From IMG/VR virus record IMGVR_UViG_3300005077_000017: 64,000 bases of DNA; one strand, written 5' to 3'. The position numbers and the translations under genes are program-made. Positions 2,859 to 57,371 of this stretch are shown piece after piece (position 1 is the stretch's first letter; each line of letters begins with the position of its first letter). Under the pieces are notes generated by a model that was not told where the DNA came from, ran no database searches, and saw nothing but the letters and a program-made list of their open reading frames with translations. This DNA is from a virus.

Positions 2859-3306
2859 CTCCGCAATTGCAGTTTTTTCTGTAGTTTTGTTTGTAGTTTC
2901 TTATGCTTATTTAGTGTACTATTTCATTATGTTACGAGCATCTAAAGATATACTAAAGTATTTAGATTCTTTAATAGATCTTACATCAAATAATATAGTA
3001 CAGTGGAGAAAATGGAAATTCCAAGAATATCCTTGGGAATGGGTCGGTGAGCTTGCTTCAGCAAAACTTAGATATCATTTTCATATTTCTAATAAAAGTT
3101 TGCTATGGAGTATAGCACATAAATGTAGGTTTTTACATATTTATCAAATTCCAGATATAGATGATTATGGGTCATATGGTAGGCATATATTCAACATATC
3201 TATTACTCCTGCTCACAAGCTTAAAAGACTAGAAGATGCTATTATTAAGCAAGTTGGTTCTGATTTACCTAAAGAAGAAAGAATAATTAACATTAGTAAA
3301 CTATAA
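2851..3306 (+). CDS. membrane-anchored hypothetical protein, paralog of next gene
   Basis: Start moved to ATG 2851 (AGGGA upstream); N-terminal TM; RFLHIY and ITPA..L.DAI.K..G motifs shared with 3328-3798. Confidence 0.7.
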   Translation: MSDSAIAVFSVVLFVVSYAYLVYYFIMLRASKDILKYLDSLIDLTSNNIVQWRKWKFQEYPWEWVGELASAKLRYHFHISNKSLLWSIAHKCRFLHIYQIPDIDDYGSYGRHIFNISITPAHKLKRLEDAIIKQVGSDLPKEERIINISKL

Positions 3307-3327
3307 AAAAGGAAGGATACTTTAACA

Positions 3328-3798
3328 ATGACATTATCGTTGTATTGCTTTGTAATTTCTCCTGTATTATGGATTGTGTTGCTTTGGCTTGTAGGAGTTT
3401 TATTCATTGATATTAGAGCTTCTAAAAAAGATAAAGAATTGATGGCAAGAGTAATTGAAGATACTATTATTGGGCAGATCAAATGGAGTACTATATCAAA
3501 TCCTTTTACTTGGAAGCAACAATGGTTTGGAGAAAATGCTAATAATCAAACAAGGTACTATTTATCAAAAAGCACATCATTTCCTTTATCTCCTTTCAAA
3601 AACAGATTTTTGCACATTTATAAATATACAGAAAAAGATACTGTGTATGGAGATAAAATAGCATTTATAGGTATAACACCTGCAGATTTATTACTGATGC
3701 TAGAAAAAGCAATAGAAAAAAAGACTGGTAAAAAATTAGAAACTGATGATTTTTATAATAATTATAAAGGGTATAATAATATAATGGAGAAAAATTAA
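3328..3798 (+). CDS. membrane-anchored hypothetical protein, paralog of previous gene
   Basis: N-terminal TM; RFLHIY and ITPA...LEKAIEKKTG. Confidence 0.7.
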   Translation: MTLSLYCFVISPVLWIVLLWLVGVLFIDIRASKKDKELMARVIEDTIIGQIKWSTISNPFTWKQQWFGENANNQTRYYLSKSTSFPLSPFKNRFLHIYKYTEKDTVYGDKIAFIGITPADLLLMLEKAIEKKTGKKLETDDFYNNYKGYNNIMEKN

Positions 3799-4331
3799 TG
3801 TATTGCTATTTTAGGCCTTTAGAAAAAAAACCCCTAGATATAGGTAAAGGGTGTCTCTACTTGGAAGCATCTACTAATGGAAGAGAATGGCGTGTTAAAG
3901 ATTTATGCACGTATACTCTCTACTTTACTTCATTTACTGAAGCTAAATTGATGTATGATAAAAGTGATACCTATGCAAAATTTGTGCACTATTGGAATAA
4001 AATACACGACATAACAGATCAATGGAATAAAGAGATTATCTATGAAGGAATAAAATTCACAAATGACGCTGGAGATGTATACTTAACTGAATATATAGAA
4101 CCTGTAATACCAGACTATACAAAAGGAAAATCTTGGTCTTGGGCATTAGAAAAACTATTGGAAGGCAAAAAGGTAAGATGGATGGATTGGGGGCATGGTA
4201 GCTATTTGGTTACAAGCGATGGATATTTAGAGAGATATTCACATATACGTAGTAGGTGTCATTATATGGGTAGGTATGCTTTATCAATAGAAAAAATGAC
4301 TGTAAACAAATGGGAATTATATGAAGAGTAA
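3798..4331 (+). CDS. protein with C-terminal DUF2829/Tad2-like domain
   Basis: WALEKLLEGKKVRWMDWG...LSIEKMTVNKWELYE resembles the family pattern FxEALxxLKxGKKVxRxGW...SxxDMLAxDWE. Confidence 0.45.
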   Translation: MYCYFRPLEKKPLDIGKGCLYLEASTNGREWRVKDLCTYTLYFTSFTEAKLMYDKSDTYAKFVHYWNKIHDITDQWNKEIIYEGIKFTNDAGDVYLTEYIEPVIPDYTKGKSWSWALEKLLEGKKVRWMDWGHGSYLVTSDGYLERYSHIRSRCHYMGRYALSIEKMTVNKWELYEE

Positions 4332-4336
4332 AAGCA

Positions 4337-5306
4337 ATGTACTTGAGTGAAACAGTTAGTTTTTTAATAGTATTTTTGTTTACAATATTTATTTCTTTAA
4401 GTATTTTAGCGAATTTTCTTATAATCAAAGGTACTTCCTTTTTTAAAAGTATACTAATTTATTCATCAATAGCCACCTACCCTATAGCTGGGATAAGTAC
4501 TGTGATACATTTTGATAATCCGAACATGTTAGCCTTATTATTCCCATTCGCTTTTTTATTACCATTTGCTATTGCTAATTTACCATTTGAAGGGATGTAA
4601 AAAACAATGCGTCTAGGAAAGAACGAACTTTGCAACTCATGCGAGGAAGATTAGCATGGAACAACTAACAATACTATCTTGCGATAATTGTCTAAGTAGT
4701 TTATGGACAATAATGATGAATAAAGAGCAGGAATTAGTGTACATGTGCGCCGGATGTGGTGAACAGTTCGACGCTAAAACAATGCAATCTGACCTTGTTC
4801 AACTAGTAAAAGAAACTTATAATTAAAAAATCGTATAATGGGGTAACAAAATACATGAAAAAGCAAAAACTAGGAAAACAACCACTAACTGATGAAGAAA
4901 TAGAGTTAATAGAAAACATTTATAAGAAGATAATAAAAGTATTAAAAAAAGAATTATTACCAGGATTAAAAGAAATTATTGACAAGAAAGTTAAAATGTC
5001 CCCACGATCATATCTATATTACGATAGTTTTAATGATTTCTGTGTGGATGAAGCTAGGTCACTAGCAGACTCAATAATAGCAGATGAGTTGTACAACTCA
5101 TGAAAATAATTATTCCTTTTACAATATGTATTTTAACAGGGGTTCTTCTAAGCTTTTTTACTTACTTAATTTGGTATGAAGGTTATAATCCAGTAATACT
5201 TTTATTGTTATTTGTCTTACCTACTTTAACTTCTATTGAAATGCCTTGGATGAAGAGACTATATGAGGAAAAAGAAAACAAACCTAGCACTACAAATTAC
5301 AGATAA
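4337..5306 (+). CDS. run of small hypothetical genes (4337-4600 membrane, a CxxC..CxxC ORF near 4656-4826, 4855-5103, 5100-5306 membrane)
   Basis: Contiguous + strand ORFs with hydrophobic or Zn-ribbon character. Confidence 0.55.
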
Positions 5307-5934
5307 AAATAAAGGAATTCTAACTCAAAAAGAGATTGAAGATTTTTTATCTAAAATGACTTGGAAAGACGTAGAACTATTATCAGTAGAACAACCTAAA
5401 GAAGTAAAAGGTTACTGCGAAAAGAATAAGCACTTTGTTGGTCAAGGTACCTGCATAGCCAAAAAGTTTTTTAATTATGGTAAAACTTCTTATGACTGTT
5501 GTTCTTGTTTTTCAGACGAAATACTAGAGCAATTAAATTATATATTTCAATATAATTACGATGGTTTATACATTGCTGAGTGGAGAAAAATACAAGAACG
5601 TAAACCAAAAGCAAAAGAGAAACCAAAGGATGACACAAAACCAACCGTTCGTCGTCGTGCTAGGGTGGGAAACAAGCCCGAGAGTGATAGTCCAAGAACC
5701 AACAAACCTGAAGAATCTATGAAAAAACCACGAGGACGCCCTAAAAAGAATGTAGACGAAACCATACAAGAAACTACACATACTAATGAGCCAACTCCTA
5801 TCGTTAAAAGAGGGCGTGGAAGACCACGTAAAAATCCTTTGCCAGATCCAGTATTATTAACATTAGAAACAACAGAAGTAGGTACTCCTCTAAAAAGAGG
5901 AAGAGGGAGACCAAGGAAAAATGAAAATGTCTAG
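5263..5934 (+). CDS. AT-hook DNA-binding protein
   Basis: KPRGRPKK, KRGRGRPRK and KRGRGRPRK in a Pro/Thr/Glu-rich tail; Cys cluster in N-terminal half. Confidence 0.7.
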   Translation: MRKKKTNLALQITDKNKGILTQKEIEDFLSKMTWKDVELLSVEQPKEVKGYCEKNKHFVGQGTCIAKKFFNYGKTSYDCCSCFSDEILEQLNYIFQYNYDGLYIAEWRKIQERKPKAKEKPKDDTKPTVRRRARVGNKPESDSPRTNKPEESMKKPRGRPKKNVDETIQETTHTNEPTPIVKRGRGRPRKNPLPDPVLLTLETTEVGTPLKRGRGRPRKNENV

Positions 5935-8296
5935 AAGTCGCATTGTAGCATCCGTTGTTATATTCTTTGTGGGCATGTTCTGTTGGGGAATGGTTATATG
6001 TGATATGTTTAATTATTTTAATTTTAATTTGGGTATAGGTCTTATTGCTACATTTGTATTTGGTGTAAGTGCTGGTGCTGTTTTCACATACGACATCATA
6101 CGCTTAATTTTGGATTAAAAAATATGGATAAAAACCCTCCATCCGCATCAAAATATTTTTTATATTTAGCATTATCTATGATATGCTTGTTTACTTACAC
6201 TTATTCAATTGAACAATTAATTGATTATTCTCAAGATTGGGGTTTGTTAATTCTTGCAGTACCTTTAGCAATGTTCCTTTCCAAAGGGGATTATAAAATA
6301 TGGAAAGAGTACAAAGAGTGGTATGACCGTATCTAGAACGCTTCTTGCTATATTAATATATTCAAACGTAATTACATTTGGAATAATCTTAGGCTCTCTT
6401 TGTGATTATTTTGATAGTGTGTATCCTCTCATTATGGCTATACCTTTTAGTATATTAAATGGGTATGGTTTAACCGCAACAGCTGAACAGTTGAGGGATA
6501 AGTGGTTCCCTAAAGGAGTAGCAATGAGTCTACGTTCAATTAAGTTATCAAATATAGAGAATTCTATTATGTATTTTGAGAATCAAATAGATGTACTAGA
6601 CAGATTAAAGAAGGAAGGAGTTAACACTATTGATGAAGGTATTGAAAAATACCAACAGTTTATCAAAGAACTAAAAGAAGAACGAGAAGAAGTAAAAGCA
6701 GAATCAAATGTTTAAAACTATAGATGAACAAATTGAATATTTAGAATCCCTTACTGCAAGGCTACTTAGAGAGAAACTAGATACTCCTGACAAAAAGAGA
6801 CAATATTCAGTTGCTCGTGAAAGACTTGAAGAATTGAGAGCTATGTGGCTGGATATAGATGAACATAAATTACCGCAAGACCCATATTATGATTTAGAAG
6901 AAAAAGTTAGTTACCATCCTAAATGTATGGATTGTGATTGTTTCCCGGCCGGGAGCAAAGAATGCAAAAATAAACCCGAATGTGAAGAGGAGGATATTAG
7001 TGGCAGGTTGTAATGAGGATCTAATAAGAGGATTTAGTGTTGGAGCACTTATAACTGCTGGAATATTAATACTCTCTTTTATTATTTTTAATAAAGCATG
7101 GGATGATGGATATAAAACAGCTTATAGGGATTATAAAATAATTGGAGAACCAGTCTTTAGTGAAAGGGTTAAGAATGCATATCCTGATTTAGAAAAAGAG
7201 AAAAAAGAGGGAACTAAATGATCGAATACATAACACATACAAAATTTAAAGATTCAAAAGACGAATTTTATATTCTATATGGTTATCCATCAGACGATGG
7301 GGTTACTCGTTCTTTAGTTGATAATTTTCCAACATTTCTTCAATCTGGAAAAGATTACATGATTGGTCATATTAGGTCTGCAGCTAGAGATTTAACATTG
7401 GATTCTACCTATGTAGTGAGATATTCTTTAGATATAAAAGAAGTAGATTTCAAGAAATTAGGAGTTATATTCATGTTAATGAAAATGAAAAAGTTCTCAG
7501 AAGAGAATGAGATCTTGGACTGTACAGATAAAAGTTTACATCACATAGTTGATACCGTAATCCCAAAGCTGTACAACGAGGTAGATTACGAAGTAAATAA
7601 AGATACTGTATTTTCTATTAAACTAATAGGGAATTCTTCCTTAGTAGATATAAATAAATCTTTAGAGTTATTTGAAAACCATTTTAATAAAATTGATAAT
7701 AAGGTAAAGGTATATGCACTATGAAAAATCCTAGAGACACAAGATTAAAAAAGTGGGCAGAATTAGAAATATTACCAAAGGATTATTTATTTTTGTTAGA
7801 GGAGATGATTTCTTGGTTAAAGAATGTATGGGAAGGGAAGACTCCCTCAGCTAAACCTAAACTTTGTCAATTCATGGAGAATAATTGTGCTTCTTGTATT
7901 AACTATATTGGAATTCCAAAGCCATGTTATGAGATAGCATGGGACCCAAAGAGTAAAAGTATAGCAAAAGAAAACGGCTGGAAAATATTAGAAATTACTG
8001 GAAAATACGATAAAAAGCATTTGCCAAATACTAATAAGCATACACATAAACTAGTATATGAAGGATTAATAAAATACTATAGCACACTTGCTAAGTCTAT
8101 TAAAAGAAACCATATAGAAAATTTGATTGAAGTTAAGATAAGTAATAATGAAGTGCTTTATAAAGAAAAACCCAAAGGGGGAGATACATTAGATATGCTT
8201 TTCAAGTATAAGAAACACGCGAAACGTAATCCAGACCTAGAATATCCAGAAGATCCAGAAGATCCAGAAGACGCAGAATATATAGAAGACGAATAG
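5921..8296 (+). CDS. run of hypothetical genes (5921-6118, 6124-6336, 6323-6715, 6708-7013, ~7000-7221, 7218-7724, 7721-8296), several membrane-anchored
   Basis: Overlapping stop/start junctions, consistent AT-rich codon use; no family recognised. Confidence 0.6.
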
Positions 8297-28229: not shown

Positions 28230-29483
28230 ATGAGGTATATTGTTAACGAAGATTATTTTAAAACTTGGACACCAAATATGGCTTACGTATTTGGTCTTTG
28301 GTGTGCCGATGGGTGTATATATAAAAATAATTTTAATATAACCCTTAAAAAACAAGACAGCTATTTATTATCATTGATAAAAAAAGATATGAAATCAGAA
28401 AGACCTATAGAACATAGAATTTATTGTATTACTAATGGGGATGTGCATACAACATGCTCATTAACTGTTTCAAACCAAACAATTATTGAAGATTTAATGA
28501 ATCTAGGAGGAACGCCTAGAAAATCTTTAACACTGAAATTGCCTAATGTCCCAAAAGAATATTTTCCACATTTTATTAGAGGGGTTTTTGATGGTGATGG
28601 GACAATTAGTAAAAATAATAAAAACAGTTGGAATGTTGGCATTTATAGTGGCTCTAAGGTATTCTTAGAAGAAATACAAAAAACATTACAAGAAGAAATC
28701 ATAAATTTCAAATCCAAGATTCATCCATCTAGAAAAATATTCTTTTTAAGGTTTTCCTCTAATAGTGCTAAGTTATTCGGCAATTATATTTATGACAATG
28801 ACTGCTTATTGTTCTTACATAGAAAATACGAGAAATTTCTAGAAATGGGAAATGAAATCAATTTAAGTTTGCTTGATTTATGTAAAAATGATTCCACTTC
28901 AGAACAAACCAAGGCAGAGTTAATACGAAGACTTTCTGAGGGGCAAACTGTTACACATATTGCTAAAGACTTTAACACCAGAAGCCAAAATGTAACAAAT
29001 GCTTTAAGATATTTTAATATTGATTGGAAAAAGTACAAAGGAATAAGAAAATACAAGAATTACTCTTGGAAAACAACTAATAAAAAATTAGAAAATTTAA
29101 CAAAAGAGGGGTTAATTAAACGATTGTCTGAAGGGCAATCTTTAAGATTTATTGCGTCAGAACACGAAGTGGATCATATGACAATTGCTTTACGGTGTGA
29201 AAAATGGGGAATAAATCGTAAAGACTATGAAGAAGTTCATAAAATGAAAAGATATTCTTGGGATAGTAATAGATTAGAAAAAATAACTAAAGAAAAACTA
29301 GTAGCTATGCTATCAGAAGGACAATCTTTAATTTATATAGGAGAACATTTTGGAGTTTCCGATGGAACAATACGCTCTTGTTGTGAGAAGTTTGATATCA
29401 ACTATAAAGAATTAGGAAAAGATAAAAAAGAGAAATTTCGACAATGTAGGTTTAAAAATAAAGGAAAAAGCTTACTAACCTAA
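28230..29483 (+). mobile_element. free-standing LAGLIDADG homing endonuclease with three C-terminal HTH-like repeats
   Basis: YVFGLWCADG and FIRGVFDGDG; repeat TKxxLxxxLSEGQ(S/T) three times. Confidence 0.88.
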
Positions 29484-53448: not shown

Positions 53449-54282
53449 ATGAAAATACTGTATGTTACTGATTTACACGGGCATGTTATGAAATATGAGA
53501 AAGCTTTAGAAGTTGCTAAAGAGCACAATGTGCATATGATTATTAATGGAGGAGACTTTAATTCTTCAACAGGTAATTTATTTGAGACACAAGATTGTTT
53601 CATTAATGATTTTTTAGATGAGTATTTTCAAAGACTAGGAAAAATATATTACATACTTTGTCCTGGTAACGATGACTTGGGCTGCTATGATGAATTAGCC
53701 GAAGATATTTGTAATAAATATGATAATGTTTCCTATTTAAAAAGAGGAGCTTTATATGAGTCAGGTTACTTTTTTATAAATTTTGATTTAGTACCAGATT
53801 ATATGTTTGGATTGAAAGATAGAGTTAGAAGAGAAGAAAAGGATAATGCTCTTATGTATACTTCTCAGGGGCTTATTAGTACTCCTGATAAAAAATATAA
53901 AAAGATATGGAATTGGCATGCAGAATGTCAAAAAATACCTTCTATAGATGAGGAATTACAAAAGTTAGCTAAGGTTATTAATTATAAGAAAGCTATTTTT
54001 ATTTCACATTGCCCGCCCGCCGGAGTAGGATTAGATTTGGTGCCTAATGGTTATGGGGGATCGAAAGCCATCGCAGAATATATATTGAATAAGCAGCCTT
54101 TACTATCCCTGCACGGACATTTCCACGAAAGTCCTAACATTAGTAACAAAATACATAATTACATAAACAAAACACTATGTATACAACCAGGACAAATTAA
54201 ATACAGATTAATAGGTGTAATTATTAATATTGAAGAGTCTGGTAAAATAGAGCATACAAAATATAATTGGAACATATTTTAA
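53449..54282 (+). CDS. calcineurin-like (Icc-related) metallophosphoesterase
   Basis: VTDLHG, GGD, PGNDD, SHCPP, GHFHE. Confidence 0.88.
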   Translation: MKILYVTDLHGHVMKYEKALEVAKEHNVHMIINGGDFNSSTGNLFETQDCFINDFLDEYFQRLGKIYYILCPGNDDLGCYDELAEDICNKYDNVSYLKRGALYESGYFFINFDLVPDYMFGLKDRVRREEKDNALMYTSQGLISTPDKKYKKIWNWHAECQKIPSIDEELQKLAKVINYKKAIFISHCPPAGVGLDLVPNGYGGSKAIAEYILNKQPLLSLHGHFHESPNISNKIHNYINKTLCIQPGQIKYRLIGVIINIEESGKIEHTKYNWNIF

Positions 54283-54496
54283 ATGTACACCTTATTAGGG
54301 ATATGGGCTTTAACAGCTATCGCTTCGTGTATTATGATGTACTATCATAACAAATTAATATATGAAGTTTTTAAAATAAATAAAACAAAAGAAAATAGTA
54401 TACTAGATTATGCGGGTGCTATTTATGCAGCTCCAGTTATAATGTGGATGCTAATATACATTACATTATATGATTTGAAATTGAGGAGGAATCGTA

Positions 54497-54571
54497 GTGA
54501 CACTTCAAGAAACATATAAAGAAAGAGGTGCAGAGTTACTTGGTGTTCCAACTAAAGAGTTAAGTTACTAA
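54497..54571 (+). pseudogene. 24-codon relic of the original RNA ligase N-terminus
   Basis: GTG 7 nt after GAGGAGG; MTLQETYKERGAELLGVPTKELSY* aligns with MEEYLKRGSQLLDIQEKELSY at 55562 (11 of 21 identical). Confidence 0.75.
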
Positions 54572-54599
54572 AGGTGCTATATACAACAATAATTAAGTA

Positions 54600-54646
54600 A
54601 CCTTCTAAGTGTACCTATAAATAGACGGAACATACACTCAGGAGGT
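54600..54646 (+). promoter_or_regulatory. RBS-sequestering hairpin with TATAAATA in the loop
   Basis: ACCTTCT-A-AGTGTA pairs with TACACT-C-AGGAGGT (one G-U, one mismatch); TATAAATA at 54616-54623. Confidence 0.7.
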
Positions 54647-54648
54647 GA

Positions 54649-55560
54649 ATGATGGATAATAATAAATTACTACTATTCTATATTGCTGGATTTATAGACG
54701 CAGAAGGATGTTTCACAACCCATATGGTTGGTGGAGGAAACCCTAGAAGTAATAAAAAATATTTAAGAGCAGAATTAGCAATTACCCATGGAGAATATGA
54801 AATATTGTTTATGATAAAGAATATTTTTGGTGGTAATATTTATAAAAAGAAAAAAATGAATACAAATCATAAAGATTTGTGGCATTATTCTTTAACAGGG
54901 TATGGGCTAATAGGTTTTATTAATAAAATGTTAAGTTTATTGAAAGGAAAAAAAGGGCAAGCAGCATTATCTTTATCTATATTAAAAACTAAAAGAACCT
55001 TAACAACCCATGATGGGTCTACGCTAGATAAAAAAATTATAATTAGAAGAGAAAAATTGGCTAAAAAAATGAAAGAATTAAAGATAAAAAATTATTCAAT
55101 GAGAAATGATGTAGATTATAACACAATAAAATCAGGGGATATTAGTTTGGAAGACTTTGCATATTTAGCAGGATTTATAGACGGAGATGGCTTCTTAGGG
55201 CAAATTAGAAGTAAAAAAAATTCGATCTTATGTAATTTAAGATTGTACAACACTAATTTAAAACTATTAATACAATTACAAAAACTTATTGGCGGTAAAA
55301 TCAAAAAATCAAGAAATAAAGGAGAAGGTAATAGCATAACAACACCATATACTCTATATTTAAATGCTAAAGATTCCAAATACATCCTAACTAAATTATT
55401 TCCTTTCCTAATTATAAAAAGAAAAGAAGCATTATTGTTTTTAGAATATATAAATTATGATTTTTCTCAACAAAAAAATAGAGAACTATTAATAAATGAA
55501 TTGAAAATAGAAAGACACAAAGAAAATAGAGTAAGAAAAATAGAAAGGTATCCACATTAA
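54649..55560 (+). mobile_element. free-standing two-motif LAGLIDADG homing endonuclease
   Basis: YIAGFIDAEG and YLAGFIDGDG; two similar halves. Confidence 0.9.
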
Positions 55561-55561
55561 A

Positions 55562-56755
55562 ATGGAAGAATATCTCAAACGAGGAAGTCAATTATTAGAT
55601 ATACAAGAAAAAGAATTAAGTTATTTTGAGAGAATTGATTATTTCAATGAAAGAGAACATCCAGAATTTGGAAAATATAAAGGTGATAATTCTCCAGATT
55701 ATTATAAATATAATGTAATAAGAGGAGTTATAAGCAGAAGGGCCGATCATAGGTATGGAGCATTAGTCATATTTGAAATAAATGAGGATTTTTGTGAAAA
55801 CATCATATGGTGTACCCCAAAACTAAAATATCCTTGGAATAAAGCTGGAGAATTTAATTGGCCTGTAATAAATCAATTGGAAGTTTGGTCTAAGATTGAT
55901 GGCACTAACATTCTTTCATTTCATTACTGGTACAAAGGTAAGAAATACACCACTTACAAAACCAGATTAAGCCCAATATTAGCAAATTCACAGTTTGGTT
56001 TATTTAAAAGTATGTGGGAAGAATACCTATCTGAAAACTCTTGGGTTAAAGAAGTAATTGAAGCAAATCCAAACTATAATTTATCTTTTGAAATGTATGG
56101 TTCACGTAATCCAATTACGGTGCAGTACGATGTTCCCCTTGAAGCTGCATTGTTGTTTGGAGTTCGAAAAGAAGATGGAGCTATTAGACCACCTTCACAA
56201 CTGAATATTGATGGAGCCAAGGTTGCATATAATTTTGTTGTAGACCCCAATAATCCTACTGAAGCTTACAATGGACAAAGAGCAGAAATGTCGGAAAGAA
56301 ATAATGGTGAGTTAAAAGAAGAAGGTATGGTGTTTTATGTTCATACTGGGCAACCTTCATGGGAAATGTTCAAATGTAAGCCTGAAGAGATTGAGAGTAT
56401 ACATTGGGCGGCTAGTGGATTTATCCCAAAGAATGCATTGTGGACCACGTTACTTAATGCTTTTGAAGAACAAGAAGAACCTACCAAAGAATATGTACGC
56501 GAACTTCTTCTAGAGGAATTCACAGACCAACAAATTCAAAAATCTATTCCAAGAATTAAGAAGTTATACTACCAAGCAAAGAATCATATTGAAATAACTA
56601 AATCTATTAATGAAGTATGGCTCAAAGCAAAAGCAGAAGGATTTGATGTGACTGTAGATAAAGCAGCAACATTCAGATTTATGTCTCAGTTTTTCAAAAA
56701 GGACCAAATGAAAAAGGTAGCTTCAATTATATTAAAACAGGCAGGGCTGCTATGA
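55562..56755 (+). CDS. RNA ligase-like nucleotidyltransferase
   Basis: TPKLKYP, SKIDGTNI, SFEMYG, EGMV, MFKCK correspond to ligase motifs I, III, IV, V. Confidence 0.75.
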   Translation: MEEYLKRGSQLLDIQEKELSYFERIDYFNEREHPEFGKYKGDNSPDYYKYNVIRGVISRRADHRYGALVIFEINEDFCENIIWCTPKLKYPWNKAGEFNWPVINQLEVWSKIDGTNILSFHYWYKGKKYTTYKTRLSPILANSQFGLFKSMWEEYLSENSWVKEVIEANPNYNLSFEMYGSRNPITVQYDVPLEAALLFGVRKEDGAIRPPSQLNIDGAKVAYNFVVDPNNPTEAYNGQRAEMSERNNGELKEEGMVFYVHTGQPSWEMFKCKPEEIESIHWAASGFIPKNALWTTLLNAFEEQEEPTKEYVRELLLEEFTDQQIQKSIPRIKKLYYQAKNHIEITKSINEVWLKAKAEGFDVTVDKAATFRFMSQFFKKDQMKKVASIILKQAGLL

Positions 56756-57371
56756 ATTGCAAGGATTGGACTGCAAAATCAAAAGGAAAGATTAGTATTG
56801 AAGCTATACTTTTTATAGGGTTTTTGGTATCTTTTGTATTTTCGGTGATTATTGCTATAGATGAAAAAAGTAAAGAAGTCCAGGCTATACGTGAAGAATC
56901 ACGCACAAGTCCTAAATTATACATTGATGCCTTTGAAGGACAACATAAACTACAGAAGATGAGAGCAGATAAAGAAACACAAGCTCATATACAAGGATCT
57001 TTCGGATTCGTTTTGTTTGGAGGAGGAGGAGGAATTCGTGGTGAAATGAGTAATGAAATTTATGTGTACTTCTCTTGGGAATATAAGGACCCTTCAGTTG
57101 GCAGCATCTTTATATTAGATAAAATGAAATATAGAGACATTTTAGTAAAATTTGAGGATATAGACACCCCTACAATTGAATTCAACCATAAACCATTTGT
57201 CTATATATATATAAGAATCCCCCAATACTGTACTATGATAAAGTGTATGTACAAAGATATAAAGACGATCCTTTAAAATTTATTGAAGAACATAGAACTA
57301 CAGCAATAATTAGATGCAAACCAGAACATTGGCCTCGAAGTGTACAGCTTCCTCTACAAGGAAACCAATGA
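56752..57371 (+). CDS. membrane-anchored protein apparently frameshifted at a (TA)6 tract (as sequenced it stops at 57276)
   Basis: N-terminal TM, FGGGGG; removing one TA joins a frame open from 57192 to TGA 57369-71, which overlaps the next ATG. Confidence 0.6.
57202..57213 (+). repeat. (TA)6 microsatellite inside a CDS
   Basis: GTC-TATATATATATA-AGAATC. Confidence 0.85.

Follow-up and report, generated by a model that had tools for sequence, protein, structure and literature searches.

We analysed a 64,000-nucleotide stretch of viral DNA (IMG/VR record IMGVR_UViG_3300005077_000017), hereafter the window, in which a LAGLIDADG homing endonuclease gene lies between a 24-codon piece of an RNA ligase N-terminus, called copy 1, and a complete RNA ligase gene that starts with a second version of the same N-terminus, called copy 2. 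This anatomy, the family homology of both copies, the lack of intron and intein features, the integrity of both genes and a break in base composition are directly observed. We consider it probable that the endonuclease gene, its leader and approximately the first 21-57 codons of a donor phage's ligase were inserted into a resident Rnl1-like ligase gene after codon 24. The locus is best read as a cassette, either one-off or mobile, made of an endonuclease and a donor 5' gene end. Its main features are the following.

54483..54489, plus strand: strong Shine-Dalgarno (SD) sequence GAGGAGG, read from the sequence, 7 nt before the GTG at 54497
54497..54571, plus strand: copy 1, remnant of a ligase N-terminus, 24 codons with a GTG start, ending KELSY, TAA at 54569-54571
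54572..54648, plus strand: leader of the endonuclease gene, 77 nt
54649..55560, plus strand: two-domain LAGLIDADG homing endonuclease gene, free-standing, TAA at 55558-55560
55562..55624, plus strand: copy 2, working ligase N-terminus, residues 1-21, homologous to copy 1
55562..56755, plus strand: intact ATP-dependent RNA ligase gene, T4 Rnl1-like, 397 amino acids (aa), ATG one base after the endonuclease stop

Aligned with each other, copy 1 and copy 2 are identical at 11 of 20 residues and reach a BLOSUM62 score of 57, while none of 2000 shuffles scored above 35. As a control, about 50 adjacent gene triples from the whole window were scored, and the runner-up to the copy pair reached 36. The N-terminus of this ligase family follows a pattern: M, a few residues, A, then LL, V, a K/E-rich part, EL, F and D-x-F-N. 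A profile of it was built from 101 sequences and searched against the six-frame translation of the window. Copy 1 was the only additional match (9.7 bits versus 5.4 for the next). Scored on identical positions, copy 1 reaches 10.1 bits and copy 2 reaches 11.0 bits, and a notional protein made of copy 1 and the ligase body scores like the real protein. These comparisons indicate that copy 1 is a genuine ligase-family N-terminus. As its fit is as good as that of copy 2, it is an undecayed N-terminus of another allele and not a drifted copy 2. An earlier note on this DNA had reported the GAGGAGG and the GTG opening a short open reading frame (ORF), the likeness of this ORF to the first 21 ligase residues with 11 identities, and a LAGLIDADG gene between the copies with its TAA 1 nt from the new ATG. 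All these coordinates hold, and on the likeness the shuffles, the gene-triple control and the profile agree.

The start of copy 1 lies within an upstream gene of the window, and its end carries the only stretch of DNA likeness between the copies.

54283..54519, plus strand: small resident membrane-like ORF, 78 aa, no family match
54554..54567, plus strand: 14-nt AAAGAGTTAAGTTA, end of copy 1, 13/14 identical to 55610-55623

The copy 1 ORF overlaps the final 23 nt of the 78-aa ORF, and the GAGGAGG is found inside the coding sequence of the latter. Since the SD and the first codons of the mini-ORF are thus within the end of a resident gene, copy 1 belongs to the local gene context. The DNA likeness is limited to the 14-mer AAAGA(G/A)TTAAGTTA, and the earlier note took the end of this agreement as the mark of the insertion point. 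The agreement itself is confirmed, but five identical residues in an AT-rich codon usage are enough to explain it, so that the 14-mer is in itself no such mark; the insertion point is marked instead by the break in ligase homology, which stops at 54568/54569. Copy 1 shares its frame with the ligase, homologous positions being 1056 nt apart, a multiple of 3. An 11-nt repeat, TAAAGGTG[C/A]TA, at 54569 and 55678, was considered as an insertion scar, but we do not count it as evidence: within 1.4 kb there are 17 repeat families, of which it is only one, the 1109 nt between its two occurrences is not divisible by 3, and the frames of these occurrences differ.

The gene downstream of the endonuclease has the features of a working RNA ligase. 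Its motif I (KxDGxN type) reads SKIDGTN, with K111, and K111, D113, G114, T115 and N116 are invariant in 16 sequences. It matches phrog_562 (T4 RnlA) at 1e-11 and has 417 homologues at E<=0.001. A Pfam search found no family that covers the protein, which places it on a distant branch. The AlphaFold (AF2) model of the protein has a pLDDT of 87.7, and the best Foldseek matches of this model are 2c5u (T4 Rnl1, E 1.4e-10, TM 0.46-0.48), 5tt6 and 9do4, these three ranging from E 1e-10 to 1e-9 and from TM 0.46 to 0.49; they are followed by archaeal and fungal RNA ligases. By motif I and by modelled fold the enzyme is thus T4 Rnl1-like, with a predicted end-joining activity. Copy 2 begins at the normal start position of the family and runs into the intact, conserved ligase. 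In the model, residues 1-30 have a pLDDT >90, with a helix at 2-12 and a strand at 19-30; the strand spans the junction at residues 21/22. Loss of the first 21 residues would probably damage this fold. Since these residues make up the helix and half of the beta-strand, a replacement would be needed to keep the enzyme.

Base composition provides an indication of where the new 5' end came from. Two features of the ligase gene matter here.

55562..55730, plus strand: 5' tract of the ligase with low GC at third codon positions (GC3), approximately codons 1-46 to 57, of endonuclease-like composition; putative co-transferred donor DNA
55652..55711, plus strand: 20-aa insertion, residues 31-50, absent from all other family members, modelled with low confidence

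The window is a one-strand, AT-rich, phage-like contig with a GC content of 31.6%, compared with 25.5% for the endonuclease gene. Ligase codons 1-46 have a GC3 of 0.09, the lowest first-46-codon value of the 53 window genes, and the rest of the ligase has 0.26. A GC3 change-point scan of the ligase placed a break at codon 57 (permutation p 0.0024). The GC content of copy 1 (36%) is like that of the ligase body (34.5%). The low GC3 common to the endonuclease and the ligase 5' tract suggests that the new 5' end arrived with the endonuclease gene, and it is with moderate confidence that we regard the endonuclease gene and about the first 50 ligase codons as having come together and been joined to a resident body. 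The low-GC3 tract includes the 20-residue insertion, and the closest relative (L001) reads DVFNNNLIRG, without this insertion. The insertion also contains TAAAGGTGATA, identical at 10 of 11 positions to 54569-54579, the 11 bases after copy 1, a repeat that is probably due to chance. The earlier note had proposed that the endonuclease split the ligase gene and supplied a replacement N-terminus. The core of this proposal stood, in that a free-standing endonuclease gene separates a 24-codon remnant of one ligase allele from a complete ligase gene whose N-terminus is that of a different allele, and the arrival of the new 5' end with the endonuclease is mildly favoured by composition.

The order of events, the endonuclease as the cause of the insertion, the cut site and the mode of ligase translation are what we infer from this anatomy. 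The insertion would have left the resident SD, GTG and 24 codons as a dead-end mini-ORF, whose stop would be the first codon of the inserted DNA. Ribosomes recruited by the old strong SD would produce a peptide of 24 residues and terminate 77 nt short of the endonuclease start. The ligase would now be made from the donor-type ATG at 55562, probably by termination-reinitiation or from a weak GAAAGG, on read-through transcripts, and neither RNA nor protein splicing would be needed. The earlier note saw no evident SD for this ATG. A weak GAAAGG is in fact present 13 nt upstream, and SD-less stop-start junctions are indeed common across the window, being the norm in this genome. The weak GAAAGG and a start one base past the endonuclease stop make reinitiation plausible.

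The endonuclease is 303 aa long from the ATG at 54649, or 302 aa from the second ATG at 54652, which is the database gene call. It matches PF00961 (4.7e-13, residues 12-74), PF14528 (residues 169-268) and phrog_5046 (2.2e-36), and in the PDB it matches I-SmaMI over residues 3-195 and I-MsoI/I-CreI over residues 168-294. The acidic catalytic residue is kept in both of its motifs, IAGFIDAEG and LAGFIDGDG. Altogether, these matches point to a monomeric two-domain LAGLIDADG enzyme, with putative cleavage and homing activities. Its frame differs from that of copy 1 and of the ligase, and it has its own start, its own AGGAGG SD, its own stop and no splicing module, which makes it a free-standing gene that is neither intron- nor intein-borne. 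In the leader, a hairpin (54600-54646) pairs with the SD AGGAGG (54640-54645); it has a stability of -15.1 kcal/mol and a z of -2.5, and 4 of 200 shuffles were as stable. Sequestration of the SD in this hairpin suggests that expression of the endonuclease is low. In genes of the T4 I-TevI type, an SD-sequestering hairpin controls endonuclease translation. The window hairpin is like these, but the promoter half of the analogy is unsupported: TATAAATA, a T4-type late promoter motif found at 54616 in the hairpin loop, is not enriched in the window (17 observed versus 19 expected).

The nearest database relatives of the endonuclease are at most 37% identical to it. The three that were examined are all free-standing genes on phage-like contigs. 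Two adjoin conserved genes, one for ribonucleotide reductase and one for Fe-S biosynthesis, through overlapping stop-start junctions, and the third, which is two genes away from a thymidylate synthase gene, runs in the opposite direction to its neighbours. No gene-end duplication was found beside the distant homologues (L053, L056, L057) or beside the window's other endonuclease gene, at 28230. Since stop-start junctions are normal in this genome and are also seen, with unrelated genes downstream, in the distant relatives of the endonuclease, the ligase junction is no evidence of a special retention device, such as the coupling that the earlier note suggested might make the element hard to lose.

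We then looked at the loci of ligase relatives, about 130 in total (31 viral, 20 from metagenomes and 80 from genomes). Every locus in which the 5' end is present has one continuous gene with the family N-terminus and usually its own SD, and none of the approximately 130 has a second N-terminus beside an endonuclease. The sole exception to the single N-terminus is a Planctomycetaceae metagenome-assembled genome (MAG; L075, 80-2900 versus 2898-6540), in which a tandem ligase locus is degraded, with blocks 82-100% identical and with deletions; this tandem copy includes an N-terminal stub, 97% identical, and has no endonuclease link. The scanned relatives are 30-54% identical to the window ligase, so they show the uninterrupted form of the gene and not endonuclease-free alleles of this lineage. 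The closest ligases are P0002 (68% identical), at a contig edge, and P0003 (63% identical). In the latter (JGI 3300075153), the ligase is called only from about residue 69, and a 157-aa gene ends 118 nt upstream, which could be another 5' disruption. The genes that flank the ligase in the window were not found beside the ligase in the relatives. Near-identity and protein searches with the region and with the ligase gave no match among 50,697 phage records.

Other forms of disruption were seen in the family. On a 181-kb IMG/VR contig (L016, 3986-6184), a 732-aa ligase is interrupted in frame near residue 290 by about 310-340 aa that match LAGLIDADG_2 (3e-26) and an intein splicing domain. This insertion is an intein; the same ligase family has thus been invaded elsewhere by a conventional route. 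An uncultured archaeal MAG (L134, L137) has tandem paralogous ligase copies. A 71-aa 5' remnant of a ligase is present on four contigs (L138, 3501-4716; L139, 1740-2073), with the ligase body absent; the L138/L139 remnant is followed by approximately 1 kb in which no genes are called and in which tRNA- or tmRNA-like 3' arms are seen (GGTTCGAATCCC, GTTCGATTCTCGCC). In L140 (62-1204) the ligase is called as two genes, of 88 and 262 aa, while tblastn is continuous, in one frame and 83% identical to P0100; either a sequencing error introduced an in-frame stop or the stop codon is reassigned. Short ORFs resembling the N-terminus of the ligase were considered as further cases and rejected: they are contig-edge fragments, L140 and the L138/L139 remnant, and have no endonuclease association.

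If the element were a self-splicing intron, group I or other, approximately 54569-55624 would be spliced out of the transcript, and translation of the ligase would begin at the GTG at 54497. The shared frame and the spacing of 1056 nt fit this, LAGLIDADG genes are often intron-borne, and the L016 intein shows the ligase family to be a target of such elements. Group I introns have a conserved P3-P9 core, a U ending the 5' exon and a G ending the intron. Against this explanation, no Rfam family reached E<=10 in 54000-57000 or the gathering score anywhere in the window, the endonuclease ORF leaves only 77 nt upstream and 1 nt downstream of it, and the U/G splice pair is absent from the homologous in-frame joins between 54542-54568 and 55598-55624. 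As the earlier note had maintained, there is no room for a group I core and no fit to the splice rules. Moreover, a ligase start codon of its own and a diverged copy of exon 1 are not expected of an intron, and we hold this explanation to be highly unlikely. Still less credible is that the 24-residue peptide and the downstream product assemble or are joined as proteins, although in T4-type phages nrdA, gene 39/60 and gene 43 are each split by an endonuclease insertion into pieces that come together again (PMC2988022), and fractured genes with split inteins flank free-standing endonuclease genes (PMC2677866). The ligase already has residues 1-21, so that the pieces overlap and do not complement each other; a stub that duplicates residues of the main chain rules out both the genes-in-pieces and the fractured-gene patterns. 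In addition, a stop follows codon 24 directly, the ligase starts at the normal N-terminus of its family, and we found no intein domain in the endonuclease, while neither the sequence past codon 24 nor that preceding the ligase start encodes half of an intein. From these features, the element is neither an intron nor an intein.

Chance similarity or an assembly artefact has to be weighed, since copy 1 is a short peptide on a single metagenomic contig. The shuffles did not reach the observed score, and copy 1 is the only extra profile match in the window, on the same strand and in the same frame, with a start codon and an SD, just upstream of the ligase; an endonuclease gene between the copies is also not expected of a k-mer chimera, and we give such an origin very little probability. 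A more serious alternative, which we judge rather unlikely, is whole-gene replacement or the decay of a tandem paralogue: the working ligase would be foreign or paralogous throughout, the other ligase would have been deleted from codon 25, and nothing would have been rescued. Either an endonuclease with a complete ligase block or a second tandem ligase gene would then stand beside the remains. The archaeal tandem paralogues, the degraded duplicate in L075, the lone 5' remnant in L138/L139 and the lack of conserved ligase synteny among relatives speak for this, but tandem paralogues are rare (2 of about 130 loci) and the shift in GC3 within the ligase, after about 46-57 codons, is more suggestive of a chimeric gene than of a uniform one.

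Several points weigh against insertion of an endonuclease with a donor 5' gene end. The arrangement is a single instance on one metagenomic contig, and the searched collections contain no relative >68% identical, so the searches brought up no allele without the endonuclease and no other carrier. In the difference in GC3 between the first codons and the rest, the ligase ranks only third of 53 genes. If the endonuclease cuts at the KELSY|FER junction, copy 2 has kept the left half of that putative target almost intact, and the proposal of the earlier note that copy 2 was recoded to escape cutting finds no support in this half-site, 13/14 identical to copy 1; recoding is not evident. The ligase 5' remnants without endonuclease in L138/L139 indicate that such scars can come from ordinary illegitimate recombination, and accidental illegitimate recombination without adaptive meaning, which would give the same anatomy, is a live reading. 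A further step, that the unit of about 54569-55624 is a mobile cassette homing into the Rnl1-like ligase genes of related phages without an intron or intein, is one we advance only as a tentative possibility. Copy 1 would then be the left homology arm and the ligase body the right arm. Recombination between the 14-mers (54554-54567 and 55610-55623) would delete exactly 1056 nt, so a precise loss is possible in principle; if rare, it would regenerate an SD-driven, in-frame target gene.

The insertion that we favour has its closest parallel in fungal mitochondria, and the analogy drawn in the earlier note is apt: endonuclease ORFs with a duplicated, foreign gene end are described as mobile ORFs in atp6 of Allomyces macrogynus, in atp6, atp9, cox2 and nad3 of Glomus, in atp9 of Rhizopus and in cox2 of Mortierella (PMC3630166). 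Common to these and to the window are an endonuclease ORF, mostly of the LAGLIDADG type in mitochondria, and a second, diverged version of the gene end that was displaced; the gene would stay functional and the native end would survive as an unused remnant. The window shows the arrangement by which mobile ORFs are recognised, an endonuclease ORF between two diverged copies of a gene end, one of them joined to the gene. In mobile ORFs the unused copy would also resemble close relatives that lack the endonuclease, with the used copy being foreign, and for the window it is base composition that leans in this direction. The order in mitochondria is core, foreign C-terminus, endonuclease and native remnant, at the 3' end, with the endonuclease sometimes in phase with the gene, whereas in the window it would be native remnant, endonuclease, foreign N-terminus and core, at the 5' end of a phage gene. 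A replaced 5' end has to bring its own start codon and site of translation initiation. Mobility has been demonstrated biochemically in Allomyces; for the window element it is hypothetical.

Free-standing endonucleases also split phage genes, as do mobE in Aeh1 nrdA, mobA in T4 gene 39/60 and seg in gene 43 of phage 25 (PMC2988022). They share with the window a free-standing endonuclease gene in a conserved enzyme gene, within the host operon, with host function retained. However, the split genes give two complementary, reassembling polypeptides without duplication, whereas the window has a redundant 24-codon stub and a single-chain enzyme with a replaced start. In the T4 review that covers insertions of endonucleases into phage coding regions, split genes are the only kind described, and duplication is not mentioned (PMC2988022). 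Compared with the L016 intein, the ligase family and the LAGLIDADG type of the invader are the same, but the intein is in frame near residue 290 and its host is rescued by protein splicing, whereas the window element is at the 5' end and has no splicing module. The literature searched yielded no example from a phage in which an endonuclease gene is accompanied by a duplicated gene end, which is not proof of absence.

Among the other genes of the window are those for a helicase, a tRNA nucleotidyltransferase and amidoligases, besides the second endonuclease gene mentioned above. The window proteins on record come from a single 72,755-nt contig. Two genes before the ligase, at 53449-54282, is a calcineurin-like metallophosphoesterase gene, whose product might partner the ligase in RNA repair by healing ends. 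Near its C-terminus, the ligase has helices (56520-56700, residues 321-378) that are weakly like GapR/UPF0335 DNA-binding proteins (Pfam 0.004, PDB 0.07), and one JGI homologue of the ligase is named 'UPF0335 family'. The ligase family is without a Pfam model despite having more than 400 members in phages and bacterial MAGs.

Homing endonuclease genes usually spare the host gene, being located between genes, in self-splicing introns or inteins or, rarely and in phages, in a gene split into two subunits. A spare gene end is a fourth solution, described in the literature searched only for mitochondrial 3' ends. A 5'-end phage version, if true, would make this a general strategy, effective where a start of translation has to be provided anew. 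It would also provide a concrete mechanism for mosaic 5' ends and for orphan mini-ORFs with strong ribosome-binding sites in phages, and the endonuclease would be a candidate for a new LAGLIDADG specificity with a guessable target.

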